Origin: Enterobacteria phage vB_EcoM_IME338
Direction: 5' to 3' (one strand)
Sequence record: MH051914
Length of the DNA stretch: 64,000 nt
Positions 1 through 27,834 of the stretch are shown here, in pieces (the stretch's first letter is position 1; every line of letters starts with the position of its first letter). The notes beneath the pieces are model-generated. The model did not search any database, was not told the DNA's origin, and saw nothing but the letters and a program-made list of their open reading frames with translations. Both the position numbers and the translations under genes were made by a program.

Positions 1-2367
1 ATGCGCATGGTAAATGACCACGCAGAAGTTATTAAGAGTTCAACTTCTTTGGAGACATCTCAAGCACAGATTACAATGACACCTGAAATGTTCAGCCTTT
101 TGAGTTCCGGTGTATACACATTTAAAGAAAGGGCAGTGATTCGTGAACTGTCGTGTAATGCAGTAGATGCTCAGAAAGAAGCTGGAAAAGAAAACATCCC
201 GTTCCATGTGCATTTACCTACTCGTTTTGAGCCTTACTTTGAAGTTCGTGATTTTGGAACTGGATTGACTCATGATAAAGTTATGAGTTTGTATCTGAAC
301 TACGGAGCTTCTACGAAGAATGACTCTAATGACTACATTGGTGCAATGGGTATCGGCTCAAAATCCCCATTTTCAATTGCTCAGTCATTCACAGTGTCTA
401 GCTATGTTGATGGTGTTGTTAATAAGTACTCTGTTTACCTTGAGAATGGTAAACCTCAAGTAACTAAACTTACTACTAACCCAACAAATGAACCCAATGG
501 CTTAGCTGTACGTGTAGCAGTTGCTGACCACCGTATCTCAAAATTCTTTGAAGAAGCTGGTCACGTATACTCATACTTTGCTGTAAAACCAGAAAGCAAT
601 ATCGAGTATGACGATGTATTAGCAGATATGAACATCCTTGCCCGTGAAGAAGGTGTTTATGATGCTATGATTCATAAGCAAAGTTGGCGCTCTAGCAGTA
701 ACAGGACAGGGTTTAATGTGGTGATGGGTAACATTGCCTATCCAGTTAACATGGAAGCATTACTTGGTGATGATTTCTTCAAAATCTTGCCAGAATTTTT
801 CCGTAGGAGTGTAGACCTTGTAAACATCTACATGCCTATTGGTTCAGTTGCTATAGCAGCTTCTCGTGAAGCTTTGCAGATGAATGATACGACAAAAAAT
901 GCTATCATTGAAGCTACTAAAAAGATAACTGAAGCCATTACAAAGGATGTTATCAAGAAAGTTAACAGCCAACCTACACTCATGGATGCTGCACAGGCTT
1001 ATGCTGAGTTACGTTTGAACTCACGAGAGATGTTTAATGTTGTGTGTCCAAAGCTAGAGTGGGGAGGCGTTAAGCTTGATTCTCTGGAAGTAGAATTACT
1101 AAACATCCGTCGTGGGATTATCTACGCAGAAGACGGCTCAGTCATTTATGAACGTGACGGTAAAGGTAATATCAAGGTTGATAGGAACGGGAACAATATC
1201 CCTAAAGTGGATTATCTTTATAATCCAGTTGCTTATGTCAAGTTCAACTCTTTAGAGAGTAAGATTCGTGCAACAGCACTTTCCTACACTCAAGAGGCAA
1301 GTATGTTCAATATCTTTGGTGTAATGCGTAAAAGCCAAATTGAACAGTTTTTGTTCGTGATTAATGACCGTCGCAATAAAAACGGAACTGAGAAGACTGT
1401 AGGACGCAATCAAATCTTGCGTGGTGCATGTCGAGACTACGCCAACGAGTCAAGTCTGTTTCACAGATATAATGGTATTGTGTTTGTATTCTCGACTGAA
1501 AAAGAGCTAGATGACTTAATCAACCTACACAAACTTGATAAAAGCTTGTTAAAGATTGTGAAGATGTCTGATAAGGAACATCACTATCAGCGTAAAGAGG
1601 CTGTAAGAGGTGTTGTAAAACTTTGGAAAGCTGTTCCAGCAGAAGGTGTAGCTTCCTATAAAGAGGTGTCAGAAGACTTAGACACAATTGAAGAGCCTCA
1701 ACTTTACATTAAGGCAGTTGGTGATACTGTTGATGGCAAATGTTTTTGCTCATCTCCAGATGATGTAGCTAAGTCAGTTGCCAATGTCATTGGAAAGACG
1801 GTCTATGTTTTCCGAAAAGCAAATTGGAAAAAGATACCAGAAGACTGGATTGAAGTAGATGAGAAACTCTTGAACGACAGCTTAACTGATGTTCATTGGA
1901 TTAATCATAACAGGTATATGACACGCGTCTGTATGCGTGGTGTCCTTAACCTTACAAGCTGTTGGATTATTACCAGAAACTTTACGTTCAATAACAGGAA
2001 GATTTCTGATGGTTATTGCTATTCACGGGATACAAACAAAACTATCTTCCTAGAAGGTAATGAAGATGCTGTTGAGGCAATGTTCGGTAAAATCCAATAC
2101 GTTGCTGCACAATTTGCATACACTTACACTATTAGTGTGTTGCAAGATTTGAAAAGGTGTCTTGGTAAGGATACAAAGCTTTACAAGAAAATTAAGAAAG
2201 CTGGTGACCGTATGTTTATTAAGGTGACAAACTACTTCTCAAAAAGAAAACAAGAAAACTTCTTGCTTTCTCATTTAGATTGGAATAAAGTGTCACCTGT
2301 TGAAGTGAGCAAGTTCTTAGGCTTTGATGTGAAGTGTGTTCCAGAAGGGACTACAATTTACGATTAA
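1..2367 (+). CDS. rIIA: rIIA-like protein with GHKL-type ATPase domain; 5' end abuts window edge and may be partial
   Basis: 788-aa ORF; N-terminal GHKL ATPase-like motifs (NAVDA, RDFGTGL, GIGSKS); followed by rIIB-like gene. Confidence 0.55.
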   Translation: MRMVNDHAEVIKSSTSLETSQAQITMTPEMFSLLSSGVYTFKERAVIRELSCNAVDAQKEAGKENIPFHVHLPTRFEPYFEVRDFGTGLTHDKVMSLYLNYGASTKNDSNDYIGAMGIGSKSPFSIAQSFTVSSYVDGVVNKYSVYLENGKPQVTKLTTNPTNEPNGLAVRVAVADHRISKFFEEAGHVYSYFAVKPESNIEYDDVLADMNILAREEGVYDAMIHKQSWRSSSNRTGFNVVMGNIAYPVNMEALLGDDFFKILPEFFRRSVDLVNIYMPIGSVAIAASREALQMNDTTKNAIIEATKKITEAITKDVIKKVNSQPTLMDAAQAYAELRLNSREMFNVVCPKLEWGGVKLDSLEVELLNIRRGIIYAEDGSVIYERDGKGNIKVDRNGNNIPKVDYLYNPVAYVKFNSLESKIRATALSYTQEASMFNIFGVMRKSQIEQFLFVINDRRNKNGTEKTVGRNQILRGACRDYANESSLFHRYNGIVFVFSTEKELDDLINLHKLDKSLLKIVKMSDKEHHYQRKEAVRGVVKLWKAVPAEGVASYKEVSEDLDTIEEPQLYIKAVGDTVDGKCFCSSPDDVAKSVANVIGKTVYVFRKANWKKIPEDWIEVDEKLLNDSLTDVHWINHNRYMTRVCMRGVLNLTSCWIITRNFTFNNRKISDGYCYSRDTNKTIFLEGNEDAVEAMFGKIQYVAAQFAYTYTISVLQDLKRCLGKDTKLYKKIKKAGDRMFIKVTNYFSKRKQENFLLSHLDWNKVSPVEVSKFLGFDVKCVPEGTTIYD

Positions 2368-3602: not shown

Positions 3603-4502
3603 ATGGCTAAAGCAGAACTTGATAAATACTACACACCTGACGAAGTAATAAGGGTGTGTGAAGATAAGCTACAAAAGGTCTTTAAAGGCTCTATTTCGTG
3701 CATTATAGACCCCTGTGCAGGTGACGGAAGATGGAAAGATTCTTTTAAGAGGGTTTGTCAAGATGTTGTGCTATACGACATCGAACCAGACTCTGAAGAT
3801 GTTAGTACAAGAGACTTCCTGAAAGATGACTTAGAGATTCCAGATAAACCTTTTGCGATTGTTACCAACCCTCCATTTGGTAAGGCAAATAGTCTGTCTA
3901 CAAAGTTCTTTAACAAGGCTGCTACAATGAATCCAGACTACATTTGCTTCTTAGTTCCCATTAACTTTGGGAAGAAGAATCTTAGCAGACTTAGCAGAGA
4001 GTACACCTGCATTGATGAAGTAGAACTACCTAACCTTCATTTTGAAAGGATTGATGGAGTTACCTACTCAGCAAAAGAATCATCACTACGCTGTAACTTC
4101 CAAATCTGGAAGAGACAAAAACGGACAGATAAAATTTGTAAGATTGTCCCTGTGATAGTTGATGGCGTAAGAGTTTATAAGCGTGAGAAATTCACACTAT
4201 ACAGGCCACCATGTCACAAGATTGATGGTAAAGAGCAGCCAGTAGGTGTTTTAGGTAAACTGGATGGAAAAGATTTGTTCACGATTATTACACATGGTCG
4301 TAAGGCTGGCACTGTGAAGGTTTTTGAACCAGATAAAGATAAGGTGTCAGTGAAACAGTTTATCGAACCACACGTAGAGGGTCTTTACTCAGCAATCAAA
4401 CAAGAATGGTTTAATGATTTGAGAGATGGTTTTGCACTGAGTCATGCAGGTTCTATCAACTCACAAGAAATTATAAATACTTTAGAAAAACACTTGCATT
4501 AA
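3603..4502 (+). CDS. N6-adenine DNA methyltransferase, gamma-class (TaqI/Eco57I-like), orphan
   Basis: motif X YYTPDEV, motif I DPCAGDG (SAM binding), motif IV TNPPFG in gamma-class order; no adjacent restriction enzyme. Confidence 0.75.
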   Translation: MAKAELDKYYTPDEVIRVCEDKLQKVFKGSISCIIDPCAGDGRWKDSFKRVCQDVVLYDIEPDSEDVSTRDFLKDDLEIPDKPFAIVTNPPFGKANSLSTKFFNKAATMNPDYICFLVPINFGKKNLSRLSREYTCIDEVELPNLHFERIDGVTYSAKESSLRCNFQIWKRQKRTDKICKIVPVIVDGVRVYKREKFTLYRPPCHKIDGKEQPVGVLGKLDGKDLFTIITHGRKAGTVKVFEPDKDKVSVKQFIEPHVEGLYSAIKQEWFNDLRDGFALSHAGSINSQEIINTLEKHLH

Positions 4503-4565
4503 TAAAAGAATTTATATAGTATACCTGTAAACAAACCTAGTAGACGAGAGAGAGAGAGAGCAACT

Positions 4566-5405
4566 ATGAAATTCAAAGAGTTCCAGAGCAAAACACCTTG
4601 CAAGATTGATTTCGTTTGTGGTGTAGCTTCCTTCTTCATGGGGTACATGGATTGGGCTAACTGTGCAAAGCCTTACTCAGCAAACCGTAGCATTGAACGA
4701 CGAATTGCTAAACCTTACCTTAATGAAGAACTTCGTGAGGTGGATTTACGTTCCCGTGTTACGGGTGTACTGTTCAATGGAGAAGTTATCAACATTGATT
4801 CTCATGCGCGTGTAGAGAACTGGAAGAATGGGAAGTTAGGTGCTCCCAAGAACGGCCTTGTCTATGTGACCCTGTTTGCTGTTAATTCACAGGAAGAAGT
4901 AGATTTCCTCTACGACCAAGAAAACTCACTAGACTCACGAGCCACAAATGGTGACCAAGTTACAACTGCAATACTACGCTCTGGTTATAAGCCACAGACA
5001 GCGTTCACCAAGAAATTTACTGGTGCTGGTGTGTGGGCCTTATTAGGTCTCCGTGGATGCCTTGATGAAGCATTTGTACTCTATCAAGAAGAGCTTAAAC
5101 TTATTGATGCACTTGGCATTGATAAGGATGAGATGGATAAGTACAAAGAGAAGACTGTAAACGGTATTAAGCAGAAGTGTGAACTGCGTAAAAAGTACTC
5201 TGCTCCAATTATGGCAGCAATGCTTAAGAGCTTCAAAGAAAACCCTGAAAAGGCTACAAAGTTCTGGTTGGACTACCGTGATGATGATGAGTCTGTAAGC
5301 AGCTTCTTAGATGCCATGAAGACCCAGTATGACCAGAATGGTGGTGTGTTTCAAGGTTATGTAATGTCACAAGCTGACGTTGCATTTAGAGCTTATAAGG
5401 ACTGA
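4566..5405 (+). CDS. hypothetical protein
   Basis: 279-aa ORF, purine-rich RBS upstream. Confidence 0.55.
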   Translation: MKFKEFQSKTPCKIDFVCGVASFFMGYMDWANCAKPYSANRSIERRIAKPYLNEELREVDLRSRVTGVLFNGEVINIDSHARVENWKNGKLGAPKNGLVYVTLFAVNSQEEVDFLYDQENSLDSRATNGDQVTTAILRSGYKPQTAFTKKFTGAGVWALLGLRGCLDEAFVLYQEELKLIDALGIDKDEMDKYKEKTVNGIKQKCELRKKYSAPIMAAMLKSFKENPEKATKFWLDYRDDDESVSSFLDAMKTQYDQNGGVFQGYVMSQADVAFRAYKD

Positions 5406-5728: not shown

Positions 5729-6277
5729 ATGAAGAAGTTGATTCTAGGTTTGTGCTTAATGTTTACAGCACACTTATCTTATGCAGTTGACTGCCCAGAG
5801 CTATCAATTAGCCAAAAAGTAAACATGTTAAAAGCTTACCAGTATGGTGAGAATAACATGGGTAAAGGTTGGGGTATCACTCTAGCTGCTATAGCCTTAC
5901 AAGAGTCAGAGTTAGGTCTGAATATGGAGAATAAAAAGACCCATGACTATGGTATCTTCCAGAATCACTTGAAGACTGTTGTAAAGCGTAACAAAATTAG
6001 TCCTAATGTGGCTAAAAAGAAACTCTTAAAAGACTTTGACTATGCTGCAAAGGAAACGCACAAAGAACTTGAGTTTTGGACAAAGGTACATGGTCAGCCA
6101 AAGTCAAAGAAGACTTTACAAAAAGTTTTAGCATCATATAATGCTGGGTATTCGTACAAAATCCCTAAAGCTAAGAAATACTCTCAAGATGTCTATAACA
6201 ATATGAAAGTTATCGCTCAATGTGAATTTGCAACAAACATTTCTAAGGTAAATCATGAAAAAATTAAGAAAGTCTGA
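5729..6277 (+). CDS. secreted lysozyme-like / lytic transglycosylase (SLT-type) protein
   Basis: N-terminal signal peptide MKKLILGLCLMFTAHLSYA; SLT-like catalytic block QESELG...YGIFQ. Confidence 0.5.
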   Translation: MKKLILGLCLMFTAHLSYAVDCPELSISQKVNMLKAYQYGENNMGKGWGITLAAIALQESELGLNMENKKTHDYGIFQNHLKTVVKRNKISPNVAKKKLLKDFDYAAKETHKELEFWTKVHGQPKSKKTLQKVLASYNAGYSYKIPKAKKYSQDVYNNMKVIAQCEFATNISKVNHEKIKKV

Positions 6278-6950
6278 TGAAGTACTGTGCCATGCTTATG
6301 ACTTGCATCCTCATGAGTTAGGTCTTGATTCCTGTGTATGGACTCCAGAACAGTGCAGGGATTTTGAAGATACTGCAAGAGAAGTTGTATGTTCACTTGA
6401 AGAGTTCCACACATCAGAACCAATTGTGAACGTTGTGGACAAAGAGACTGGACAATCTATAGGTGTAAGACGTGATAGTTTAGTCATAGTCAATAAAGAC
6501 CTTGTAGAAAAAGGTAACCTCATCTTAGCAGATATTGATGGTGTTCTTACAAATTTTAATCACGAAGATTGCTCAACGGAACTGATTGATGGGTCATTCT
6601 CACAGTACACTAATCTTCTTGACTCTGTAAGAGCAAAACCAACATATGTTTTTAGTATTATTGATGCAATTGCTAATTATGCTGCCATTGGACTCTTGAC
6701 AGCTAGAGGTGAATCTCAGAGAATACCTACTGAGATGTTTTTAAGGCATTACATAGAGCATGATTACATGCTTTTCATGCGTGGTTTTGGAACTAACTCT
6801 ATAAGTGCAGAAAGTTTAAAAGTTAGGATGATTCAGTCTTGCATTCTTCCTTACTTTAATATAGTATGCTTTATAGAAGATACAGAGAAGAATGTTCAGA
6901 AGGTGAACAGGATTCTCCCACACATCAAAACCATGTTAGTTAAACATTGA
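6255..6950 (+). CDS. hypothetical protein
   Basis: 231-aa ORF, AGGT RBS. Confidence 0.5.
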   Translation: MKKLRKSDEVLCHAYDLHPHELGLDSCVWTPEQCRDFEDTAREVVCSLEEFHTSEPIVNVVDKETGQSIGVRRDSLVIVNKDLVEKGNLILADIDGVLTNFNHEDCSTELIDGSFSQYTNLLDSVRAKPTYVFSIIDAIANYAAIGLLTARGESQRIPTEMFLRHYIEHDYMLFMRGFGTNSISAESLKVRMIQSCILPYFNIVCFIEDTEKNVQKVNRILPHIKTMLVKH

Positions 6951-7995: not shown

Positions 7996-8158
7996 GAGTG
8001 ATAAGTACACTCAAGAAGAATCACGGTATATCATCAAAGGCAACACAGGCAGTGATGTAGCAGCAGCACTTGAGTTCTACCGTGATGGCTTTTACCAGTG
8101 TACAATTAAAGCTAATAACCTTATTGACATGATTTTATTAGGAAATAAGCAGCAATGA
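7889..8158 (+). CDS. o-spanin-like (Rz1-like) lipoprotein, overlapping the i-spanin gene
   Basis: lipobox LLILMSGCS; start embedded in 7648-7995 in a different frame. Confidence 0.5.
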   Translation: MKRLSQSFITFVLLILMSGCSTNKANFTFKNSQVSESDKYTQEESRYIIKGNTGSDVAAALEFYRDGFYQCTIKANNLIDMILLGNKQQ

Positions 8159-8424
8159 CAGAGAATCAAGATACTTTCTATGTAGAAGGTTACTTACTGT
8201 TACCACGACCAAAAGAAACTTATATGCGAATCGACTTCTTACCAACCATTATGGATAATGTGATGTGCCATATCTTTATGCAAGGTGTCACAGCACAGCT
8301 TAAGCATGTTGGTAAAGAGTGCAAAATAAAGGTTGACACTCATCCAGAAATCAAAGAGAATCACTACACATGGTTCTTACCAGACTCTAAAGAAATCTTA
8401 GCAGTTCTTAAAACGAGGAAGTAA
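8155..8424 (+). CDS. hypothetical protein
   Basis: 89-aa ORF, start overlaps upstream stop. Confidence 0.45.
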   Translation: MTENQDTFYVEGYLLLPRPKETYMRIDFLPTIMDNVMCHIFMQGVTAQLKHVGKECKIKVDTHPEIKENHYTWFLPDSKEILAVLKTRK

Positions 8425-8426
8425 CT

Positions 8427-8753
8427 ATGCAGATTAATGGAAGAGACTTTGTAGCTGTTTACTACGAGAAAGATAAAGAAGTTGGCGTAGCACAAGTATC
8501 TTATGGTAATGGTAAGTGGTTGTATGGGACAATCGCAGTAGTCGGAACAAGAAGTGATACAAAGACTTTTAAAGACTGTGTTGACCTTCTTGAAGAATCC
8601 ATCCACAATCATTGGTGTCTGATATGGATGACTGGCAACGAAGTGATAGAACGCTTCAAAAAGATTGGTATCAACATTGATAGTATTGAGCATGTTGACT
8701 TGTATGAGCTAACTGAGAAGGTAAACTATGAAAGTAATACTAGCCAGAGATAA
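8427..8753 (+). CDS. hypothetical protein
   Basis: 108-aa ORF, GAGGAAG RBS. Confidence 0.5.
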   Translation: MQINGRDFVAVYYEKDKEVGVAQVSYGNGKWLYGTIAVVGTRSDTKTFKDCVDLLEESIHNHWCLIWMTGNEVIERFKKIGINIDSIEHVDLYELTEKVNYESNTSQR

Positions 8754-8961
8754 AAAGACACGTAAGATTGTACGTTCAGCAGTATTCAAAGGGAGACATG
8801 AAGTCATCCCGTTTGCAGAAGAAGATGTGTTAACTTACAAGAAGGTGATAAAACGTGAGTGCAGTAACCATTTCCGTGACTTCTTCTCTGAACCATTAGA
8901 AGATTTCAAAAGTCGCTGTGGCGAAGGCATCATCATTCAAGAGGCAATTATTCATGGCTGA
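8728..8961 (+). CDS. hypothetical protein
   Basis: 77-aa ORF, AAGGTAA RBS. Confidence 0.4.
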   Translation: MKVILARDKKTRKIVRSAVFKGRHEVIPFAEEDVLTYKKVIKRECSNHFRDFFSEPLEDFKSRCGEGIIIQEAIIHG

Positions 8962-9154
8962 TTTCTGCAAAGATTGTGCTATCGAAATGTTTGGACGTGA
9001 TACAGGTGACTTAAAAGGCCTTATCACTGAAGATGACTTTAAAGCTGGCTATGCAATGCCAGTAATCTGTGAAGGTTGTGGATGTATCTGGGTAGACCAC
9101 GAAGGACAACGTGTAAAACCTTCAGAAGATAAAGAATCTTGGGAGAGATGCTAA
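8954..9154 (+). CDS. hypothetical Cys-rich (zinc-ribbon-like) small protein
   Basis: CxxC...CxGC pairs; start moved to ATG at 8954 with AAGAGG RBS (track start 8918). Confidence 0.4.
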   Translation: MADFCKDCAIEMFGRDTGDLKGLITEDDFKAGYAMPVICEGCGCIWVDHEGQRVKPSEDKESWERC

Positions 9155-9940
9155 ATGGGTATTGTAAAAATCATCAATGGGGATATCTTCTCCGCATTTG
9201 ATAAAGGTAAGTTTGATATCATTGGTCACGGTTGCAACTGTATGAATTTAATGGGTGCAGGTATCGCTGACAAGATTTCTAAACTTTACCCAAAAGCATA
9301 TGAAACCGATACAGAAGTTTATCTGTATGCAGGTGGCATAGGTCACAAACCCTGTGAAAATTTACTAGGGAATTTCTCTGTAGCACGTTTAGAACAAGGC
9401 CGTATAGCTAACCTTTACACTCAGCTTAAGACTGGTAAAGATGCCCGATACAGTGCTTTAGAGTCATCTTTGAAACAGCTTAACAGATACTGTGAAGTTA
9501 ATCAGTTGAAGAAGGTTGGGTTACCTATGATTGGTGCAGGTATCGGTGGGCTAGACCCTCAAGCCGTCACAGTTATCATCAATCAGGTGATGAAGAGTGT
9601 AGATGTTTATCTATATGTCTACGAAGGAGAGATGTACCACAAGTTACGCTCAGGTTGGAAGAACTACTGTGAACCAGAATACTTTGCAGGTGTAGTTGTG
9701 TTCACGGATAATGCAGTTACCCTCTTCAGACGAAGAAAAGGTAAGATACATCAAAGTAACCCTCCGGTTGAAAAGATGTCTCTAAGTAACGCTCTAGTTA
9801 CCCACCTGTCGAAGAGCAATCACAGAATTGCAGTAACATTTGGCAGTGATGCAGATACGTATATCTATGCAAGAACTGATGAGGATATCGAGACGGTCTT
9901 CTCATCACCGGAAGTTACCTTCTTAGACGCAAAGAACTAA
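9155..9940 (+). CDS. macro-domain (ADP-ribose-binding/processing) protein
   Basis: N-terminal NGDIF...GHGCNCMNLMGAGIA and later GLPMIGAGIGGL match the macro-domain Gly-rich phosphate-binding loops. Confidence 0.6.
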   Translation: MGIVKIINGDIFSAFDKGKFDIIGHGCNCMNLMGAGIADKISKLYPKAYETDTEVYLYAGGIGHKPCENLLGNFSVARLEQGRIANLYTQLKTGKDARYSALESSLKQLNRYCEVNQLKKVGLPMIGAGIGGLDPQAVTVIINQVMKSVDVYLYVYEGEMYHKLRSGWKNYCEPEYFAGVVVFTDNAVTLFRRRKGKIHQSNPPVEKMSLSNALVTHLSKSNHRIAVTFGSDADTYIYARTDEDIETVFSSPEVTFLDAKN

Positions 9941-9996
9941 GAAACTCTGTAGAATATTCACAATAGACTAAGCCTTTCTTATCTGGTAAATTTTTC

Positions 9997-10215
9997 AGGT
10001 AAGGAGGGCTTTTTCATTTCAGAATTGTGCAGGTATATTTCTATAGAGAAATCTGTAGAGAAAATTTTGAACTCCAAAGAGGAAATTCATTTTCAAACTG
10101 TGCAGGTAATCTCCAAAGAGCTTTTTCATTTTCAAAACGTGCAGAGAAAAATCAGGTCGGGCAAGAAAAATCATTTTAGAATTGTGCAGGTAGGTGGGTG
10201 CAGGTGGGGATGTTG
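9997..10215. repeat. four direct repeats of about 28 bp (TTTTCATTTTCA-AAYTGTGCAGGTA), 40-45 bp apart
   Basis: copies near 10007, 10081, 10119, 10166; ends in GGTGGGTGCAGGTGGGG. Confidence 0.5.
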
Positions 10216-10369
10216 CCATTTCTCACAATGCTACCACATCTGAAAAGAAAAGTCAACAGAAAAATTTGTAGCGGATTGAAAAATAATTCTTGATTGTAGT
10301 TCTGTTTTGTGGTAGCCGCGCGCACCCGTTTCATTACAATTTTTTGCAAAAATATTTTTAAAATTCCTA

Positions 10370-10398
10370 TTGACTCTTTGAGTATGGTTATCTAATAT
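10370..10398 (+). promoter_or_regulatory. sigma70-like promoter for small-gene array
   Basis: TTGACT-N17-TAATAT. Confidence 0.55.
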
Positions 10399-10447
10399 TT
10401 GCATCAGACGGGCAATCAAGCTCACTTCCTAAACTGGAGAATCAGAA

Positions 10448-10630
10448 ATGGCTAAAAAGATTAATGTTGGCGACGAAGTTGTTTTAAAGTTCGAAAAACG
10501 CTACACAAGAATGTCAATTAGTTCTCACAAGGTTTATAATGTTGATGCTATAAACAGCGATGGGACAATCAAGCTAAAAGGACACAAAGAAAGTTTTCCA
10601 AAAAATATGTTTGACAAATGGAAAAAATAA
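10448..10630 (+). CDS. small hypothetical protein (array gene 1)
   Basis: conserved TIR CCTAAACTGGAGAATC-N5-ATG. Confidence 0.5.
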   Translation: MAKKINVGDEVVLKFEKRYTRMSISSHKVYNVDAINSDGTIKLKGHKESFPKNMFDKWKK

Positions 10631-10669
10631 GTTATTCTCTTCCTTGATTCCTAAACTGGAGAATCTAAA

Positions 10670-10876
10670 ATGCTTTACAGCCGTGAATTGATGGATACAA
10701 CCAACGTTAATACAAAGGTAAAACGTTTTTATATGCAAGTGTGTGGCGCATGGCGTAGAATACCAGAAGCTGACTATTGCAACTATGTAGAAACGGCTAT
10801 CAACTCTAGTTGTTACCTTACAAAGAATACAAAGAAACTTATAAAACATACAGCTGTTTACTATTACGATATATAA
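10670..10876 (+). CDS. small hypothetical Cys-containing protein (array gene 2)
   Basis: conserved TIR upstream. Confidence 0.5.
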   Translation: MLYSRELMDTTNVNTKVKRFYMQVCGAWRRIPEADYCNYVETAINSSCYLTKNTKKLIKHTAVYYYDI

Positions 10877-10964
10877 AAAGTACTTTACAAGGGGCTTAAA
10901 AGTTGATATCTTAAGCCCCAGATAAAGAGCTTTACTAACTAACCTTAAACTAGGAGATTCTAAA
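10877..10964 (+). repeat. intergenic module family A copy 1 (promoter + stem-loop + RBS), diverged
   Basis: TTTACA..GGGGCTTA...TAAGCCCC..RBS. Confidence 0.5.
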
Positions 10965-11345
10965 ATGGCTTATCGTGCACCGAAATTCATCAACAAAGAC
11001 AACTTTCGCAAAGTACTGGAGAAGTCACTTGATGAAAAATTTAACGGAAAATTGATTATTGTTCACGCATTTAATTTTAAGTATGACATTAACGGGAATA
11101 AAATCAATCATTACACGGCAACAATGGTGGACGGTTTACTATCAAGTGAAAAAGCCATACTGAATGCGCTTGCTGGACGTGGTAAAAACCTGATAAGATG
11201 TGATAAGAGACGTTATCAAGGCGGCACATATGGTTATGATGATACTGTTTATCATCTTGAAAACATGGGCTATCAAGTAGAAAAAGCTGGAGTATCACAA
11301 ATTATCGGTAGTGATGGCTATGTGACAATTTTTAAAATTAAATAA
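10965..11345 (+). CDS. hypothetical protein (array gene 3)
   Basis: conserved TIR; 126 aa. Confidence 0.55.
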   Translation: MAYRAPKFINKDNFRKVLEKSLDEKFNGKLIIVHAFNFKYDINGNKINHYTATMVDGLLSSEKAILNALAGRGKNLIRCDKRRYQGGTYGYDDTVYHLENMGYQVEKAGVSQIIGSDGYVTIFKIK

Positions 11346-11432
11346 AAAGTACTTTACAAGGGGCTTATAGTTCGATAAAGTAAGCCCCAGATAAAGAGCT
11401 TTATCACTCAATCCTAAATTGGAGATTCTAAA
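11346..11432 (+). repeat. intergenic module family A copy 2
   Basis: TTTACA-N17-TAAAGT with hairpin GGGGCTTA/TAAGCCCC overlapping the spacer and -10, then conserved RBS. Confidence 0.55.
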
Positions 11433-11945
11433 ATGAAAACTGTAGACGCTACCTTTGAAGTTGTAAAAGAAAAATTTTCCATCATTTATGAGGCTGTTAC
11501 TTGGTATGAACCAAGTCATGCCCTTGAAAATTGGGAATTTACAGATGACCATCAAGGCGGGGTAACTATCAAAAATCCTAACTATCAACGAAATGGATTT
11601 AAGTATGCAATCCCTTTACATTATAGCCTGAAACAGCTTTCAAGTGATTATGCAAAACAAGGCCGGGAAAATCCATCCCGTGAGGCTTACACCAGCTTAC
11701 AGGAAGAACTACAAAGGGATTTAGAGGCTTCAGAGTATTACCTATCTGCAAAAGTTGTCGATGCAAACGGAAAAACGGTCTTAGATAGTTTTTCTATTGG
11801 TTACGCTTTCGATTGGTGCTATAGCGACGGTGAGGATTTAGAGGATAGACTAAGAGAAGAGGTGAACAATTCAGACGCAGAATCTGAAGTTATGGAACAA
11901 TTAGAAGCCTTAAAAGATTCAGTGATGAATATCTTTAAAAATTAA
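11433..11945 (+). CDS. hypothetical acidic protein (array gene 4)
   Basis: conserved TIR; 170 aa. Confidence 0.55.
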   Translation: MKTVDATFEVVKEKFSIIYEAVTWYEPSHALENWEFTDDHQGGVTIKNPNYQRNGFKYAIPLHYSLKQLSSDYAKQGRENPSREAYTSLQEELQRDLEASEYYLSAKVVDANGKTVLDSFSIGYAFDWCYSDGEDLEDRLREEVNNSDAESEVMEQLEALKDSVMNIFKN

Positions 11946-11961
11946 ATTAAGAAGGAACATC

Positions 11962-12294
11962 ATGTTAATGATGGGTGTCACTGCAATCATAGCCATTATA
12001 GCACTTTATAAGGCATATAAAGCCTATAATCTAGCAAGTAAGGCAATCACGCAACAGGTTAACAATAATCTCGTGATGAACTTTCTGGAGCGTTTAAGTG
12101 ATGAGCAAATAAAACGGTTAGAAATGAGCTTCAGATTTCAATCAAAAACCTATCAAATCAGCGACATTTTCAAAGATGATTTTCAGCTTGTCGATGATTA
12201 TAACTCTCTGATAAATGCTTTAAATATCAGTGATTTAAAAGATTATCATGCTGTAATAGTTCAAGAATTGAGCAAACGAAAAAATTCCTCTTGA
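11962..12294 (+). CDS. hypothetical membrane protein (array gene 5)
   Basis: N-terminal TM helix; AAGGAA RBS. Confidence 0.5.
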   Translation: MLMMGVTAIIAIIALYKAYKAYNLASKAITQQVNNNLVMNFLERLSDEQIKRLEMSFRFQSKTYQISDIFKDDFQLVDDYNSLINALNISDLKDYHAVIVQELSKRKNSS

Positions 12295-12381
12295 TTTTGG
12301 TTTTTAAAACAAGTAAATTACTAATCAACGGGAGGGATAACCTCCCCACTAAGTAAAGTCCTTAAACTAGGAGATTCTAAA
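12281..12381 (+). repeat. intergenic module family B copy 1
   Basis: TTGATT-N17-TAAATT, hairpin GGGAGG-GATAA-CCTCCC, conserved RBS; 5' end includes last codons of upstream gene. Confidence 0.55.
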
Positions 12382-12654
12382 ATGTATACTACTAACAATG
12401 GCCGTACTCTAAATGTCACTCTACGCCACTATGTAGACGGCGTGATGAACTTTGAAGATTTACAAGCGGAGCAACATATCTTAGATTGGCAACTTGCTGG
12501 ACTTCAAAAAACTGCTACCGGATATGGTAAAAAGATTCCAACTAGCTGGAAAGTATACTACAAAGGCCGTTTGCGCAGAATTTATCAGGATGTATACAGC
12601 AATAGCGCAACAAGTTACATCATGGTAAAAGGTAAAAAGCTGCATTTAGTGTAA
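12382..12654 (+). CDS. hypothetical protein (array gene 6)
   Basis: conserved TIR. Confidence 0.5.
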   Translation: MYTTNNGRTLNVTLRHYVDGVMNFEDLQAEQHILDWQLAGLQKTATGYGKKIPTSWKVYYKGRLRRIYQDVYSNSATSYIMVKGKKLHLV

Positions 12655-12739
12655 AGTACTTTACAAGGGGCTTATAGTTCGATAAAGTAAGCCCCAGATA
12701 AAGAGCTTTATCACTCAATCCTAAATTGGAGATTCTAAA
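12655..12739 (+). repeat. intergenic module family A copy 3
   Basis: near-identical to copy 2. Confidence 0.55.
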
Positions 12740-13144
12740 ATGGCTATTAATAACCGTGAATTATCAATTTTAAAAGCACGTTTGACCGTTAACCGGATTA
12801 ATGTTATGACATCAGCAGCGCCAGATGAGACCTTATATAATATTATCGGAAAGATTCAAAGCGTTATCTTAGACGTTGAAAGCGTAAAAAAATCACTGAT
12901 TGACGTTGCAGCGGGTATCACGCTAGACGGCGCACAATATGAAATGGCTGACATGTTAGGCAAATCTAAGGTAATGAATAGAGAGCTGGATTTGAAAATG
13001 TTCCGTTTTGCTGTCAAGGTGTGGCTATCCATCGAATATGACGCAAATTTTGCAATCGCTGACTTTTTCGCAACATGGTTACAACGTAATTTAACAAATT
13101 ATGATTTTCGTGATATCTGCGACGTAATTTATTCAGAACTTTAA
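12740..13144 (+). CDS. hypothetical protein (array gene 7)
   Basis: conserved TIR. Confidence 0.55.
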   Translation: MAINNRELSILKARLTVNRINVMTSAAPDETLYNIIGKIQSVILDVESVKKSLIDVAAGITLDGAQYEMADMLGKSKVMNRELDLKMFRFAVKVWLSIEYDANFAIADFFATWLQRNLTNYDFRDICDVIYSEL

Positions 13145-13248
13145 AAAATTCCTCTTGATTTTGGCTTTAAAAGCAAGTAAATTACTAATCAACGGGAAGG
13201 GGATGAACTCCCCCACTAAGTAAAGTTCTTAAACTAGGAGATTCTAAA
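13145..13248 (+). repeat. intergenic module family B copy 2
   Basis: as copy 1 with compensatory changes in hairpin. Confidence 0.55.
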
Positions 13249-13452
13249 ATGGCTATTATTAACGGTTTAAACATTGAAACTACTCATATCAAAGATATCA
13301 AAGTCGGTGATATAGTCCTTTTTCACGGCGTAGAAAAAACCGTCACTGAAAAGGATATCAAAGAGGATTTATTCATGGGCCGGACTCTCTTCGGTGATTC
13401 CTATTGCTTAGGTTACCGTGCAGTTTTAAAAGTTATCAAAAATAATCGTTAA
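13249..13452 (+). CDS. small hypothetical protein (array gene 8)
   Basis: conserved TIR. Confidence 0.5.
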   Translation: MAIINGLNIETTHIKDIKVGDIVLFHGVEKTVTEKDIKEDLFMGRTLFGDSYCLGYRAVLKVIKNNR

Positions 13453-13537
13453 AGTACTTTACAAGGGGCTTATAGTTCGATAAAGTAAGCCCCAGATAAA
13501 GAGCTTTATCACTCAATCCTAAATTGGAGATTCAAAA
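13453..13537 (+). repeat. intergenic module family A copy 4
   Basis: near-identical to copy 2. Confidence 0.55.
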
Positions 13538-14080
13538 ATGAAATGCTTTCACGGTACTACTCAAGAAAATTTTATCAACCTGATTAATAACGGTGATAAG
13601 CCATCAGGTGCATGGAATTGTTCGGATATGGATGGGAATTTTTACGTTTATCCAGAAAATAAAATCTATGGCGACGATGAGGAAGAGATAATCTCTGAAG
13701 GTATCCAACAATCTCTGGGTAATGCCGCTATCACCGCAGCTTTCCAGATGAAAACTCAAAACATTGTTATCTTGGAACTTGATATTCCAGAGGATGAGTT
13801 GAATGATGATTATTCTTGTGATAATATGTCAAACGTGGCAAGTTTTACAGAGTATTTTGATACAAGCTGGATTAAAAAGGTTTACATCACTGAATTTAAT
13901 GCTATGTTTTCGCCATTTTGTCTTCCTTCACTGGATAACCCGAATTTAAACCATATTGATGAGTCTCTGGAACTCCTCGCTAAAAGCGTTCAACAGTCCG
14001 ACAATATTCAGGTTTTTTGTGACATCATGGACACACTGACAGAAAACATCATAGAAAGAGATTTGAAGAGCTTTTTCTAA
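13538..14080 (+). CDS. hypothetical acidic protein (array gene 9)
   Basis: conserved TIR; 180 aa. Confidence 0.55.
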   Translation: MKCFHGTTQENFINLINNGDKPSGAWNCSDMDGNFYVYPENKIYGDDEEEIISEGIQQSLGNAAITAAFQMKTQNIVILELDIPEDELNDDYSCDNMSNVASFTEYFDTSWIKKVYITEFNAMFSPFCLPSLDNPNLNHIDESLELLAKSVQQSDNIQVFCDIMDTLTENIIERDLKSFF

Positions 14081-14146
14081 TAACCTATACAATCACCTTA
14101 TAAACACTATTCAGCCCCTTGTAGGGGCTTTTAGAAGGCTTTAATC

Positions 14147-14380
14147 ATGCTTACAACCGTTTATCTCATCCTTTCCATCTGTAATGGTCATTCATGTGAT
14201 TTTAAAGGGCTTGAGGAGTTTACAGGGAGTAAAGAAAATGCTATTCAGGTTTGCCAGATAGCAAGGCAAGACTACCCCGCCAGTGATGATATACAATGTT
14301 ATTTTAAGACAGAAGACAGCGACGGCGTCTATTTTGACAGTGTTGACGGGCAAGATGAAATTATCATAGAAAAAGACTAG
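14147..14380 (+). CDS. small hypothetical protein (array gene 10)
   Basis: GAAGG RBS; GC hairpin upstream. Confidence 0.45.
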   Translation: MLTTVYLILSICNGHSCDFKGLEEFTGSKENAIQVCQIARQDYPASDDIQCYFKTEDSDGVYFDSVDGQDEIIIEKD

Positions 14381-14470
14381 ACAAGCCTGATAGAAATCTG
14401 TAAATTGTCAATTAACGGGGAAGCGATAACATCCCCACTAGATAAAGTCCTTAAACTAGGAGATTCAAAA
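14381..14470 (+). repeat. intergenic module family B copy 3 (5' part diverged)
   Basis: hairpin GGGGAAGCGATAACATCCCC + conserved RBS. Confidence 0.5.
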
Positions 14471-14719
14471 ATGTATACCAAAACACAGCTCAAAAATATG
14501 GTTAAAAATGGCTTGATGGATGAAGTCTATATAGAGTGTAGACGATATGGAGAAATCAAAGGTAAATCAAGCTATGAATACACCCACACAATAAACTTTA
14601 AAACTAATGAGCAAAAAACCGACTTGATAACTAGCATTATAATTGAGTACAAAGGTATAATATGGTCCTTTGAGCTAGTAAAAGGCGAGTGTATAGAAAT
14701 CGAATTCAAAGACGCTTAA
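14471..14719 (+). CDS. small hypothetical protein (array gene 11)
   Basis: start reset to ATG after conserved TIR; track ORF 14405 starts inside the repeat module. Confidence 0.5.
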   Translation: MYTKTQLKNMVKNGLMDEVYIECRRYGEIKGKSSYEYTHTINFKTNEQKTDLITSIIIEYKGIIWSFELVKGECIEIEFKDA

Positions 14720-14806
14720 AAGTACTTTACAAGGGGCTTAAGAGATTGATACCATAAGCCCCAGATAAAGAGCTTTACCACTAAATCCTAAACTGGAGTT
14801 TTCACA
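14720..14806 (+). repeat. intergenic module family A copy 5 (variant)
   Basis: same architecture, variant stem. Confidence 0.5.
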
Positions 14807-14953
14807 ATGTCAAATGCTGTTGAAACGGTTTTTAACAATCCGGTATTTTCAGAGATGATTTTCTCGTTTATCATGATGTTACTTGTTAAAACCATGAAAA
14901 AGGCCGAAAAATTACACTCAAAGAAAAAAGCTATTGCAAACCGTTTTAAGTAA
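14807..14953 (+). CDS. small hypothetical membrane protein, 48 aa (array gene 12)
   Basis: conserved TIR then ATG; hydrophobic core; below track cutoff. Confidence 0.4.
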   Translation: MSNAVETVFNNPVFSEMIFSFIMMLLVKTMKKAEKLHSKKKAIANRFK

Positions 14954-15000
14954 AGCTATAGTATCAATCAAGCCCACTTCCTAAACTGGAGATTCAAAAA

Positions 15001-15342
15001 ATGGCTTATGTAACTGTAATTACCAATAAAGCGGATTCATCTTGGTCAACTCAAGTAAGCGATAAAATGTCACCTATGCAGTGCCTAAAATACTTTGAGC
15101 AGTGGAACAAAGGCGAGGATGTCAGCCCCTTTCAAGTCATGCAGATTATCCATGTAAGCAATGAAGGGGTTAAAACGGTTTTAAATAGTGAGTACTATGT
15201 AACCAGATTTGAAACAAGATGTAAAGCAATGAAGCTCTTGCGTGAGTCTGGTTATGCCCATATCGCCGCGTTAATCTGGAATGACTTGCTAAAAAATCAG
15301 CGTATCAGCTACGTAAAACCTGAAAAAATATTCATCAGTTAA
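15001..15342 (+). CDS. hypothetical protein (array gene 13)
   Basis: conserved TIR. Confidence 0.55.
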   Translation: MAYVTVITNKADSSWSTQVSDKMSPMQCLKYFEQWNKGEDVSPFQVMQIIHVSNEGVKTVLNSEYYVTRFETRCKAMKLLRESGYAHIAALIWNDLLKNQRISYVKPEKIFIS

Positions 15343-15461
15343 TCAATAACTTACAAAAAACTTTTAAAAAGATGTTGACAATCCCTCTTGACATTGGTAA
15401 CTTTGTTCGAGGGGGTTTATCTAAAAGGGATTCACTTAAAAGATTCTTTATAGATAAACTT

Positions 15462-15564
15462 AAAAAATTGCTTGCAATCAGATATCAAAACAAGTAAATT
15501 ACTAATCAACGGGGAGACGATAACCTCCCCACTAAATAAAGCCCTTAAACTAGGAGATTCAAAA
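15462..15564 (+). repeat. intergenic module family B copy 4
   Basis: TTGCAA-N17-TAAATT, hairpin GGGGAGACGATAACCTCCCC, conserved RBS. Confidence 0.55.
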
Positions 15565-16095
15565 ATGAACAAGTTCAAAGCTATCAACTTCATTCGTTCA
15601 AATAGTGTCATGTCAAAGCCTGTCAAAGATACCTACGAATTTCGTTGCAATAGGGTACATTTTGCAACCATCACCAAATCAGAAAACGGGGCTTATTACG
15701 TTCATCGTCGTAATGCTGCAACCGTTGCAGTCTCTCACTTTATGCAAGCTGTAGCAGAGTTATTACCGCTATTCTTAGAGATTTACTTAGATGATTGTAA
15801 AAACGTTCACAGACACGTTAAAAACCTTTTAAATGGTTATAAAATGGCTTATGAACGTTCTATTAAGTCCTTAAACAAGTTCTATAAAGCCCCTGTAAAT
15901 ACTGTTTCAATGGCCTACGGCATAGGTGGCTGGACTGTTAACCTTTCTCTAGTGGAAGAAATCGAGCTTTATGATTTACGTCCTAGCTGTTACGCTAAGA
16001 CACTGGGAGAGGGCTTATCTTTCAACATCAAGAACTTAGAGAAAACTTTAAAAGATATTGAAAAAGATATTGATGAGACAATCAAAAATCTGTAA
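15565..16095 (+). CDS. hypothetical protein (array gene 14)
   Basis: start reset to ATG after conserved TIR; track ORF 15472 starts inside the repeat module. Confidence 0.5.
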   Translation: MNKFKAINFIRSNSVMSKPVKDTYEFRCNRVHFATITKSENGAYYVHRRNAATVAVSHFMQAVAELLPLFLEIYLDDCKNVHRHVKNLLNGYKMAYERSIKSLNKFYKAPVNTVSMAYGIGGWTVNLSLVEEIELYDLRPSCYAKTLGEGLSFNIKNLEKTLKDIEKDIDETIKNL

Positions 16096-26666: not shown

Positions 26667-26743
26667 CTCTGTTTAGCTCAGCTTGGTAGAGCGTTCCGTT
26701 TGGGGCGGTAAGGCCGGAGGTTCAAGTCCTCCAACAGAGACCA
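26667..26743 (+). tRNA. tRNA-Pro (anticodon TGG)
   Basis: manual cloverleaf: acceptor CTCTGTT/AACAGAG, anticodon loop TTTGGGG, T-arm GGAGG-TTCAAGT-CCTCC, CCA encoded. Confidence 0.75.
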
Positions 26744-26750
26744 AATTAAT

Positions 26751-26828
26751 GTTCCAGTAGACAAAATGGTATAGTCACCACTCTTTCAAAGTGGATATTT
26801 GAGGGTTCAAATCCCTTCTGGAACGCCA
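26751..26828 (+). tRNA. tRNA-Glu (anticodon TTC)
   Basis: acceptor GTTCCAG/CTGGAAC, anticodon arm CCACT-CTTTCAA-AGTGG, CCA encoded. Confidence 0.75.
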
Positions 26829-26835
26829 GTTTTGA

Positions 26836-26908
26836 CAGAAGACCAATTACAGCAAACTTAATCTTATTCATCTGACACGAAATCGGACAAAGAAGAGATT
26901 TGGTCTGG
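26836..26908 (+). ncRNA. Y-RNA-like structured element E1
   Basis: 5' CAGAAGACCAATTACAGCAA ... 3' TTGGTCTGG; terminal helix AGACCAA/TTGGTCT. Confidence 0.4.
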
Positions 26909-26919
26909 TCATTAAGAAT

Positions 26920-26996
26920 TGCGGGTATAGAGAAAGGGCGTCTCACATGTCTCATTAGCATGGTATCGGCAGGTTCGACTCCTGCACCCGCCTCCA
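26920..26996 (+). tRNA. tRNA-Met-like (anticodon CAT), atypical acceptor/D junction
   Basis: D-arm GAGA/TCTC, anticodon arm CATGT-CTCATTA-GCATG, T-arm GCAGG-TTCGACT-CCTGC; acceptor pairs only with a 3-nt connector or 1-72 mismatch. Confidence 0.5.
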
Positions 26997-27002
26997 ATTT
27001 TG

Positions 27003-27062
27003 CAGAAGACCGTATGCAGCAATAAACTACTTTTTGCGGATAAAAGAAAAAACACGGTCTGG
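27003..27062 (+). ncRNA. Y-RNA-like structured element E2
   Basis: 5' CAGAAGACCGTATGCAGCAA ... 3' ACGGTCTGG; helix AGACCGT/ACGGTCT (compensatory vs E1). Confidence 0.4.
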
Positions 27063-27073
27063 CAACCTATTAA

Positions 27074-27147
27074 GGTTAGGAAGCACATGAGGTATGTGCG
27101 GTCGCCTGTTAAGCGAATGGCACAGGGTTCGAATCCCTGACTAACCG
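27074..27147 (+). tRNA. tRNA-Asn (anticodon GTT)
   Basis: D-arm GCAC/GTGC, anticodon loop CTGTTAA, T-arm CAGGG-TTCGAAT-CCCTG. Confidence 0.75.
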
Positions 27148-27159
27148 CAAAATTTAAAT

Positions 27160-27247
27160 GTGTCGTTATCCCGTAGATGGTAGCGGTGGGGACTGTAAAT
27201 CCCTTGTCATTGAGACTCGGTAGGTTCGACTCCTACACGGCACACCA
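27160..27247 (+). tRNA. tRNA-Tyr (anticodon GTA), class II
   Basis: acceptor GTGTCGT/ACGGCAC, anticodon arm GGGGA-CTGTAAA-TCCCT, long variable arm, T-arm GTAGG-TTCGACT-CCTAC, CCA. Confidence 0.75.
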
Positions 27248-27308
27248 ATTTTGAGAGGGCTATTTAGCCCCTCCCTTAAAGGGTTCTTACGAGTATTCTT
27301 TAAAGGAG

Positions 27309-27382
27309 CAGAAGACCAAATACAGCAAGTTATTTAAAATTTCAAGCCAATTTAATTTTGAAAAATTTAAAACTTGGTCTGG
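27309..27382 (+). ncRNA. Y-RNA-like structured element E3
   Basis: 5' CAGAAGACCAAATACAGCAA ... 3' TTGGTCTGG. Confidence 0.4.
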
Positions 27383-27395
27383 CTCAACAAATTTA

Positions 27396-27526
27396 CAGAA
27401 AACCGTTTACAGCAAAACTTAAACAATCTATTTCTCGGTAAAGAAAAGGCGAAGGTTCGATTCCTTCACTCGGCAGATGTCGAGTTGGTGTAATGGTAGC
27501 ACTTAAGATGATAAACAACGGTCTGG
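27396..27526 (+). ncRNA. YrlA-like RNA candidate: terminal helix enclosing a permuted tRNA-like module
   Basis: ends CAGAAAACCGTTTACAGCAA / AACGGTCTGG; internal T-arm GAAGG-TTCGATT-CCTTC, closed acceptor-like hairpin ACTCGGC-AGAT-GTCGAGT, D-arm GTGT-AATGGTA-GCAC. Confidence 0.5.
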
Positions 27527-27529
27527 TAA

Positions 27530-27669
27530 TTATCTTTGTAGATAAGTTATTAAGCTTACCTGTGAGTATGCGACCACAAAGGGTGAAAGGGTAAATTCTA
27601 GATTTAAACCCAACAAGGCACATCGCTACAGACCTTAAGCAAGTCTGGGTAGCTTATCTACAAAGATAA
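27530..27669 (+). ncRNA. structured RNA candidate with perfect 17-bp terminal stem
   Basis: TTATCTTTGTAGATAAG pairs with CTTATCTACAAAGATAA about 105 nt away; inner bulged hairpin CTACAGAC/GTCTGGGTAG. Confidence 0.4.
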
Positions 27670-27675
27670 TTTAAT

Positions 27676-27751
27676 GGAAGTGTAGCAGAATGGTGATGCG
27701 GCAGACTTTTAATCTGACAGGCGATGGGTTCGAATCCCTCCACTTCTACCA
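27676..27751 (+). tRNA. tRNA-Lys (anticodon TTT)
   Basis: acceptor GGAAGTG/CACTTCT, anticodon loop CTTTTAA, T-loop TTCGAAT; T-stem only 3 G-C pairs. Confidence 0.6.
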
Positions 27752-27755
27752 ATAT

Positions 27756-27832
27756 GGTTCAGTCGCAGATAAGGTAATGCAGGGGTCTCATAAGCCCTAT
27801 GAATGTGGGTTCGATTCCCATCTGAACCTCCA
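27756..27832 (+). tRNA. tRNA-Met (anticodon CAT; initiator/elongator/Ile2 not resolved)
   Basis: acceptor GGTTCAG/CTGAACC, anticodon arm GGGGT-CTCATAA-GCCCT, T-arm GTGGG-TTCGATT-CCCAT. Confidence 0.7.
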
Positions 27833-27834
27833 AT

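Follow-up and report, generated by a model that had tools for sequence, protein, structure and literature searches.

INTRODUCTION

Functions have only recently been assigned to one family of phage macro-domain proteins, and the two published ones differ: removal of ADP-ribose from DNA against the DarTG2 defence and dephosphorylation of ADP-ribose-1''-phosphate (ADPR-1''-P) against the defence aRES. Here, we describe a gene of this family (the macro gene, encoding the macro protein) in a stretch of 64,000 nucleotides, referred to as the window, from Enterobacteria phage vB_EcoM_IME338 (sequence record MH051914). Its product joins an N-terminal macro domain to a C-terminal domain (CTD); the coordinates of all features are collected in Table 1.

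The T4 gene tk.4 was identified by HIDEN-SEQ as the single gene that is conditionally essential on DarTG2 and was named adfM; its clean knockout makes T4 sensitive to DarTG2 (bioRxiv 10.1101/2025.11.20.689424). Macro proteins of chimalliviruses, e.g. gp104 of phiKZ, were independently named AdfM. These proteins remove DarT2-made ADP-ribose from DNA in vitro, and mutation of the asparagine that matches N28 of the macro protein lowers the activity of the phiKZ enzyme (PMC13309987). A second function emerged from the NARP1 pathway, whose founding example is the gene pair 79–80 of phage Bas63 (bioRxiv 10.1101/2024.02.11.579819). A macro protein resembling Poa1p accompanies the enzymes Adps and Namat in 15% of the NARP1 operons, and the representative from Vibrio phage Gary, Adpp, converts ADPR-1''-P to ADP-ribose, which lets NARP1 beat the RES-domain NADase defence aRES (bioRxiv 10.64898/2026.01.28.702374).

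The window belongs to an Escherichia coli Felixounavirus, a group of phages used in typing and biocontrol of Salmonella and E. coli. A megablast search with positions 8000–11000 matched 253 phage records at 90–95% identity, essentially all of them Felixounavirus of E. coli, Salmonella or Shigella. The macro protein is 99% identical to the copy in phage Andreotti and about 97–99% identical to many others, which are usually annotated as ‘putative phosphatase’ or ‘macro domain-containing protein’. Its ortholog in the BASEL phage Bas63 (JohannRWettstein) is bas63_0095, with a CTD that is 99% identical. Since the gene is already annotated in hundreds of genomes and functions of the enzyme family are published, the core finding is not new. 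New or open are the two-domain form found in Ounavirinae with its orphan, fast-evolving CTD, the defence that is countered in a NARP1-bearing phage and the family-wide presence of a glutamine in place of a lysine. Felixounavirus relatives that carry both NARP1 and the macro protein provide a natural system to ask whether one enzyme fills both roles.

RESULTS AND DISCUSSION

The protein contains a macro domain of the Tk.4/AdfM–Adpp family

An earlier note, made by a model from the letters of this DNA, had proposed an N-terminal macro domain with two Gly-rich loops followed by about 110 residues of unknown function, and had named a profile search against Pfam Macro as a check. This search was positive: PF01661 was matched with 32.1 bits at a gathering cutoff of 22 (E = 1.2e-7), residues 25–141 aligning to profile positions 2–117 of 118. 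Both quoted loops are there, GHGCNCMNLMGAGIA at residues 24–38 and GLPMIGAGIGGL at residues 122–133. The protein also matches PHROG 335 (‘phosphatase’, more than 2,800 phage records) with E = 2.6e-113 and contains the signature shared by this group, HxCNC ... N-[LV]-Y-x-Q ... P-x-IG-x-G, the motifs of which are invariant in an alignment with T4 AdfM and Gary Adpp. All matches in NCBIfam and PADLOC were to DarG models (1.3e-12 and 3.8e-13, respectively) and covered the macro half of the protein. The DarG equivalog NF048014 reached 47.7 bits against a cutoff of 250 and aligned at profile positions 4–153 of 338 only.

We further built a family profile from 31 homologs, which was searched against the PDB, and used the same alignment for an AlphaFold2 model. 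The profile retrieved TARG1 (4e-17), Mycobacterium tuberculosis DarG (5e-16), SCO6735, Poa1p (4e-15) and Thermus aquaticus DarG (1e-13). The model of the full-length protein has a predicted local distance difference test (pLDDT) score of 90.6 and a predicted template modelling (pTM) score of 0.89, and displays the three-layer alpha/beta/alpha macro fold with its two Gly-rich ADP-ribose-binding loops. In Foldseek, the top PDB fold matches were TARG1/OARD1 (4J5Q/R/S; template modelling score 0.81–0.85) and Poa1p (6LFQ; 0.75), and DarG scored 0.77–0.80 (T. aquaticus 0.80); these alignments span about 155–178 columns and thus the macro domain only. Judged by the Pfam match, the PHROG match and the fold matches to TARG1 and DarG, which lie far outside chance, the proposed N-terminal macro domain is real and belongs to the Tk.4/AdfM–Adpp family; its ligand-binding loops are intact and its Asn/Gln active site is conserved.

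A glutamine occupies the position of the catalytic lysine

The sequences of Poa1p and of the M. tuberculosis and T. aquaticus DarG proteins were verified against the PDB before they were aligned with the phage proteins. Among 31 family members, residues H25, G26, N28 and C29 as well as N86, L87, T89 and Q90 are invariant. N28 aligns with N22, the active-site asparagine of both DarG proteins, and H25 aligns with H23 of Poa1p (mutated in 6LFS) and H32 of TARG1; in the ortholog of Erwinia phage MM7, glutamine is found at the position of H25. The HxCNC motif is common to Poa1p and the macro protein, while the second loop (GAGIGGLD) aligns with GVGNGGLD of DarG (PPLGVGNGGLD), the shared pattern being GxGxGGLD. 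In the place of the catalytic lysine of TARG1 (K84) and DarG (K80), the family invariably has a glutamine, Gln90, and D125 of TARG1 aligns with G131, a position that is likewise glycine in DarG. Loop length in Poa1p was discarded as evidence, since the MAFFT placement of this protein around the glutamine loop is ambiguous.

The glutamine of the NLYTQ motif is also present at this position in T4 Tk.4/AdfM and Gary Adpp. For this reason, and because omega of the macro domain is about 0.03 (see below), we do not regard Gln90 as a feature of decay. An invariant glutamine in place of the catalytic lysine of TARG1 and DarG across thousands of phage genes rather poses a mechanistic question. The exchanges K84/K80 to Q90 and D125 to G131 would be expected of a non-catalytic reader or sponge of ADP-ribose that has lost the lysine. 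We deem such a role extremely unlikely, as Gary Adpp has the same glutamine and yet is catalytically active, and as N28 and Q90 are invariant in a domain that is, by its omega, kept by very strong purifying selection.

The resemblance to TARG1 also brings up reversal of the ADP-ribosylation of protein or RNA, not DNA, e.g. by the mRNA-modifying CmdT, with the CTD selecting the modified macromolecule. TARG1, the top structural match, is a hydrolase acting on protein (Glu-ADP-ribose), macro domains are promiscuous, and E. coli has RNA- and protein-targeting ADP-ribosyltransferase (ART) defences (PMC11618068). However, both catalytic residues of TARG1, K84 and D125, are missing from the macro protein, and such an activity has been reported for no homolog in the family, which makes this role very unlikely.

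The closest characterized relative is T4 AdfM

The macro protein is 35% identical to T4 Tk.4/AdfM over the whole macro domain (81 bits, E = 6e-24), its closest characterized homolog, and 27% identical to Gary Adpp (KNV71_gp137, 53 bits). T4 AdfM itself is 35% identical to the Adpp ortholog of phage Noelle (77 bits). PHROG 335 is matched by T4 AdfM (1.3e-65) and Gary Adpp (1.3e-49) as well, and a search with Adpp brings back the same approximately 2,450 phage records, T4-like ones among them. Hence, similarity alone does not split the family by function, and we abandoned sorting AdfM-type from Adpp-type proteins in this way: the three proteins are roughly equidistant and only a loop insertion differs. 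This insertion comprises seven residues, is rich in histidine (QYHWHAHKVAPGRN) and follows directly after the glutamine in Adpp; it is absent from T4 AdfM and the macro protein.

The HGCNC and NLYTQ motifs of the macro protein are the same as in T4 AdfM, the loop behind the glutamine is equally short, and both genes stand in virulent coliphages amid small accessory genes. The T4 protein consists of one domain of 155 residues, whereas the macro protein has the additional CTD of 104 residues, and the anti-DarTG2 phenotype has been demonstrated for T4 AdfM only. DarG (T. aquaticus, 5M31/5M3E; M. tuberculosis, 5M3I and 7YK3) resembles the macro protein in having a second, C-terminal domain behind its N-terminal macro domain, in addition to the shared asparagine and Gly-rich loop. 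TARG1 and Poa1p are eukaryotic single-domain proteins, with about 24% identity to the macro protein. Going by its published description, phiKZ gp104 is likewise a phage macro domain with the catalytic asparagine conserved, but it differs in keeping the DarG-type lysine (K78) and in being imported into the phage nucleus.

Since T4 AdfM is the closest characterized homolog, the loop features are DarG-like and the insertion of Adpp is missing, we rank an AdfM-like function first, with DarT2 reversal as the most likely job in vivo. We thus tentatively favour a counter-defence ADP-ribose 1''-hydrolase, which would de-ADP-ribosylate DNA against DarT2 and of which the CTD would be a lineage-specific module. 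The macro domain of this early-region gene product would bind ADP-ribose and cut the bond at the 1'' carbon of the ribose, so that the ADP-ribose placed by host DarT2 on thymidines of single-stranded phage DNA would be stripped off and replication could proceed on E. coli and Salmonella carrying DarTG2. The catalytic residues may be Asn28, which is conserved, and Gln90, which is invariant in the family, and not a lysine of the TARG1/DarG type. The CTD would be non-catalytic and specific to the lineage, would pack against the macro domain and would most plausibly serve in targeting, the partner or substrate being the host toxin, DNA or a phage protein. Hydrolysis of a substituent at the ADP-ribose 1'' position is what we infer from homologs, and the same holds for the substrate, the in vivo target and the role of the CTD.

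Several points weigh against this assignment. The DNA activity of T4 AdfM has itself been deduced from genetics and structural similarity only, and the sole phage AdfM with biochemically proven activity on DNA, that of phiKZ, has the lysine (PMC13309987) for which the macro protein has Gln90. The 35% identity between T4 AdfM and an Adpp ortholog exemplifies that similarity does not separate the functions, and NARP1 in the same conserved block of relatives favours an Adpp-like function. We found no published test of any Felixounavirus on DarTG2 or aRES, and the role given to the CTD is a guess. The reactions of AdfM and Adpp are chemically similar and need not be mutually exclusive: as Adpp performs the same chemistry, removal of a 1'' substituent, activity of the macro protein on ADPR-1''-P is also quite possible. 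The suggestion of the earlier note that the protein could counter ADP-ribosylation-based responses or process NAD-derived signals agrees with the functions since published for AdfM and Adpp within PHROG 335.

NARP1 genes lie upstream of the macro gene in relatives

In Bas63, SUSP2 (Suspvirus) and Erwinia phage MM7 (Kolesnikvirus), an Adps–Namat pair is found upstream of the macro gene on the same strand, at a distance of about 8–10 kb in Bas63 and SUSP2 and about 10–12 kb in MM7. A NAPRTase-family (Namat-like) gene also lies upstream in L007, a metagenomic relative that is only 41% identical. In the case of Bas63, the macro gene is gene 95 and is separated from NARP1 genes 79–80 by rIIA/B and the spanin genes, which places it beyond two genes of Adps–Namat. 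The window begins at rIIA, just downstream of the position expected for NARP1, which would fall beyond the 5′ end.

This arrangement bears on an Adpp-type function as an ADPR-1''-P phosphatase. aRES splits NAD+ to nicotinamide and ADPR-1''-P, and removal of the 1''-phosphate lets NARP1 (Adps, Namat) rebuild NAD+. In its favour, Gary Adpp belongs to the same PHROG, shares the HxCNC and N-x-Y-x-Q motifs and the Gly loops with the macro protein, and is biochemically an ADPR-1''-P phosphatase, while the aRES of that study originates from E. coli (10.64898/2026.01.28.702374); the upstream NARP1 genes described above point in the same direction. In a metagenomic family member of 339 residues (P0026), a macro domain with NLYTQ has a different C-terminal fusion partner, a cREC_REC domain (PF20274, ‘cyclic-phosphate processing receiver’). 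As cREC is a predicted processor of cyclic-phosphate derivatives of ADP-ribose (PMC9503650), this partner hints at processing of small-molecule ADP-ribose phosphates in the family.

On the other hand, the gene of Gary Adpp is located between those of Adps and Namat, whereas the macro gene lies outside the NARP1 operon, about 8 kb or 15 genes off, with rIIA/B and lysis genes in between, beyond the ‘within two genes’ limit used in the Adpp study. The macro protein lacks the His-rich insertion, has a CTD and resembles T4 AdfM more closely than Adpp. Moreover, T4 keeps a family member without NARP1, and a small-molecule phosphatase has no obvious need of an extra domain of 104 residues. We therefore rank an Adpp-type function second, as somewhat unlikely but a serious competitor. 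If it applied, the Ounavirinae would run a split NARP1-AP pathway, in which the CTD might serve to attach the macro protein to Adps/Namat or to aRES.

A Pfam scan of 56 non-structural open reading frames (ORFs) of the window revealed no ART, NADAR, sirtuin or Tpt1 domain, Macro being the only domain related to ADP-ribose; the substrate is thus presumably made by the host. An ADP-ribosyltransferase, NADAR or Tpt1 partner encoded by the phage was hence dismissed for the window. By the same scan, no ART-like domain and no DarT-type (DUF4433) toxin stands next to the macro gene, the neighbours of which are unrelated small genes. PhageMaP has screened Bas63 against 33 defence systems, DarTG and aRES not among them, and nothing was reported for gene 95.

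The CTD is an orphan domain found only behind the macro domain

The C-terminal extension of the earlier note is present as a separate fold, confidently predicted, and its boundaries were placed correctly, but it comprises 104 and not about 110 residues. It takes the same fold in the full-length model and in a stand-alone model (pLDDT 78, pTM 0.71). Only P174, G179 and Y236 are conserved, and a local basic hairpin, RRRKGK (residues 194–199), is not conserved in distant members.

Searches for relatives of the CTD remained negative throughout: nothing significant was matched in Pfam (a PH domain stayed below threshold at E 0.04–0.1) or, with a CTD profile, in the PDB (ribosomal protein S17 and BamB at E > 0.02). 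A word-index search gave no candidates, a fold search of BFVD returned only the SUSP2 ortholog of the protein itself, and no CTD paralog was found elsewhere in the window. An exhaustive hidden Markov model search of 1.84 billion representative proteins yielded, apart from spurious hits to beta-propeller or repeat giants, nothing but members of the family and pieces of this gene. We could rule out that the CTD is the DarT-binding, single-stranded DNA-mimicking domain of DarG (hhalign probability 0.2% against 7YK3_B), and also that it is an acidic DNA mimic, since it is charge-neutral with an isoelectric point of 7.1.

By tblastn, the CTD was found in 255 phage records, essentially all of the Felixounavirus, Suspvirus or Mooglevirus type. 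It occurs only fused to a macro domain of the PHROG 335 type, in Ounavirinae-like phages, and metagenomic relatives down to 19–23% CTD identity keep the synteny of rIIA, rIIB, the polynucleotide kinase gene and, further on, the macro gene. A CTD copy 89% identical to that of the coliphages is also contained in the 147-kb record GU169904.1, ‘Staphylococcus phage SA1’ (128366–128683), and one ‘Campylobacter’ record matches as well; both records are probably chimeric or mislabelled. In Erwinia phage vB_EamM-M7 (MM7, Kolesnikvirus), gp101 (L037, 13998–14780) is an ortholog of 260 residues, the macro part of which is 44% identical over the aligned domain. Its C-terminal 105 residues have no detectable similarity to the Felixounavirus CTD (hhalign 0.06%). 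In the PHROG 335 profile, the two regions fall on one and the same stretch, and the relation between them may be one of divergence or of domain replacement.

The two domains evolve at different rates

The gene was intact in all 31 copies examined. Within the genus, Nei-Gojobori omega is 0.18 for the CTD and 0.03 for the macro domain, and the corresponding values among sister genera are 0.28 and 0.10. Amino-acid identity between genera amounts to 46–52% for the CTD against 75–80% for the macro domain. The CTD is therefore a real module under purifying selection, and its rate of evolution is several times that of the macro domain. Identity to the window copy moreover differs between the two domains in opposite directions: in the IMG/VR Felixounavirus L024, the macro domain is 92% and the CTD 100% identical (L024/L025 CTD, 99–100%), whereas L014 shows the reverse with 99% for the macro domain and 95% for the CTD. 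This opposition implies that recombination has taken place within the gene, close to where the two domains meet.

Fast evolution and the lack of conserved polar residues would suit a binding or adaptor role of the CTD better than catalysis, and the domain is a candidate for a new specificity or inhibitor module. We regard it as unlikely that the CTD is a hypervariable inhibitor or adaptor which physically binds a host effector, either DarT2 or a NADase of the aRES type. In that case, the protein would combine enzymatic reversal with direct blockade, and a virulent phage would have re-invented the two-domain DarG design by a convergent, non-homologous route. If this were true, the turnover of the CTD between genera of the Ounavirinae, up to the unrecognizable region of MM7, would track different host toxins.

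Genomic neighbourhood of the macro gene

The macro gene is located in an accessory block of small genes, a slot that is conserved in Ounavirinae-like phages, and belongs to a run of one direction that begins at rIIA (window positions 1–2367) and proceeds via rIIB, methyltransferase-like ORFs, a gene for 182 residues, a polynucleotide-kinase-like gene, spanin genes and small ORFs; the run is closed by a terminator-like hairpin downstream of the macro gene. The stop codon TAA (9152–9154) of the preceding small Cys-rich ORF is directly contiguous with the ATG of the macro gene, which suggests that the two are translationally coupled. This ORF is kept in Felixounavirus, Suspvirus and one metagenomic relative and is missing from remoter two-domain relatives; a conserved partnership with the macro gene was thus discarded, as it holds for close relatives only.

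Table 1. Positions in the window of the macro gene, its encoded domains and motifs, and adjacent features
Feature	Positions	Strand	Basis
Complete gene, ORF of 261 residues, ATG start and TAA stop	9155–9940	+	Ortholog of Bas63 gene 95; PHROG 335 match
Macro domain, residues 1–157	9155–9625	+	Pfam Macro, Foldseek, identity to T4 Tk.4/AdfM and Gary Adpp
Loop 1 GHGCNCMNLMGAGIA, residues 24–38, holding H25 and N28	9224–9268	+	Alignments
NLYTQ motif, residues 86–90	9410–9424	+	Profile alignment to TARG1 and multiple alignment
Loop 2 GLPMIGAGIGGLD, residues 122–134, diphosphate-binding Gly-rich loop	9518–9556	+	Alignments
CTD, residues 158–261: helix 158–167, six beta-strands, helix 244–249	9626–9937	+	Predicted models
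Shine-Dalgarno-like box GGGAGAG, 7 nt before the ATG	9141–9147	+	Sequence reading
Small Cys-rich ORF (CKDC...CEGCGC) upstream of the macro gene, PHROG 2210, function unknown	8918–9154		
Terminator-like hairpin, 17-pair stem, 8-nt loop, then T-run TTTTCATTTC	9970–10021	+	

The polynucleotide-kinase-like (PNKP-like) gene (6255–6950, PHROG 3970 ‘polynucleotide kinase’) lies about 2 kb upstream of the macro gene and is conserved in all relatives, distant ones included. Together with the HxCNC motif and the match of H25 to H23 of Poa1p, this proximity raises the idea of a housekeeping role in which the macro protein, in concert with the kinase, clears by-product ADPR-1''-P from RNA repair (2′-phosphotransferase chemistry) in the manner of Poa1p, and PhageMaP noted a faint Tpt1-like resemblance of Bas63 gp107. 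Yet the equivalent of gp107 in the window (13538–14077) has no Tpt1/KptA match in Pfam, the scan of window ORFs turned up neither an RNA ligase nor a 2H phosphoesterase, and both experimentally supported roles of the family are anti-defence. We accordingly rate this housekeeping role as highly unlikely.

Between rIIB and the gene for 182 residues, two ORFs (3603–5405) are missing from the corresponding position in Bas63 and SME50. One encodes 299 residues with a weak match to N6-DNA-methylases, the other 279 residues of PHROG 2615, function unknown. In distant relatives, a gene for a Dam-type methyltransferase occupies this position, and the site is thus an indel or cargo hot spot.

Just past the terminator of the macro gene, a non-coding stretch of about 500 nt contains four copies of a 28–34-nt repeat (...TTCATTTTCAAACTGTGCAG) at 10005–10189, spaced by 73, 39 and 45 nt and of unknown function. 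Further downstream (10868–14809 and 12311–15567), a conserved intergenic cassette stands in front of each of several consecutive small ORFs; one family of cassettes is about 99 nt long with five copies (69–100% identity), and a second is 74 nt long with four copies. Each cassette consists of a promoter-like TTTACA box, a hairpin (GGGGCTTA...TAAGCCCC or GGGAGG...CCTCCC), a GGAG Shine-Dalgarno sequence and the ATG. We take these cassettes to be similar to the mobile promoter-stem-loop cassettes of T4-type phages. Finally, a cluster of 22 tRNA genes, with two each for tRNA-Met, tRNA-Lys, tRNA-Leu and tRNA-Ser, is situated at 26667–30669 on the + strand.

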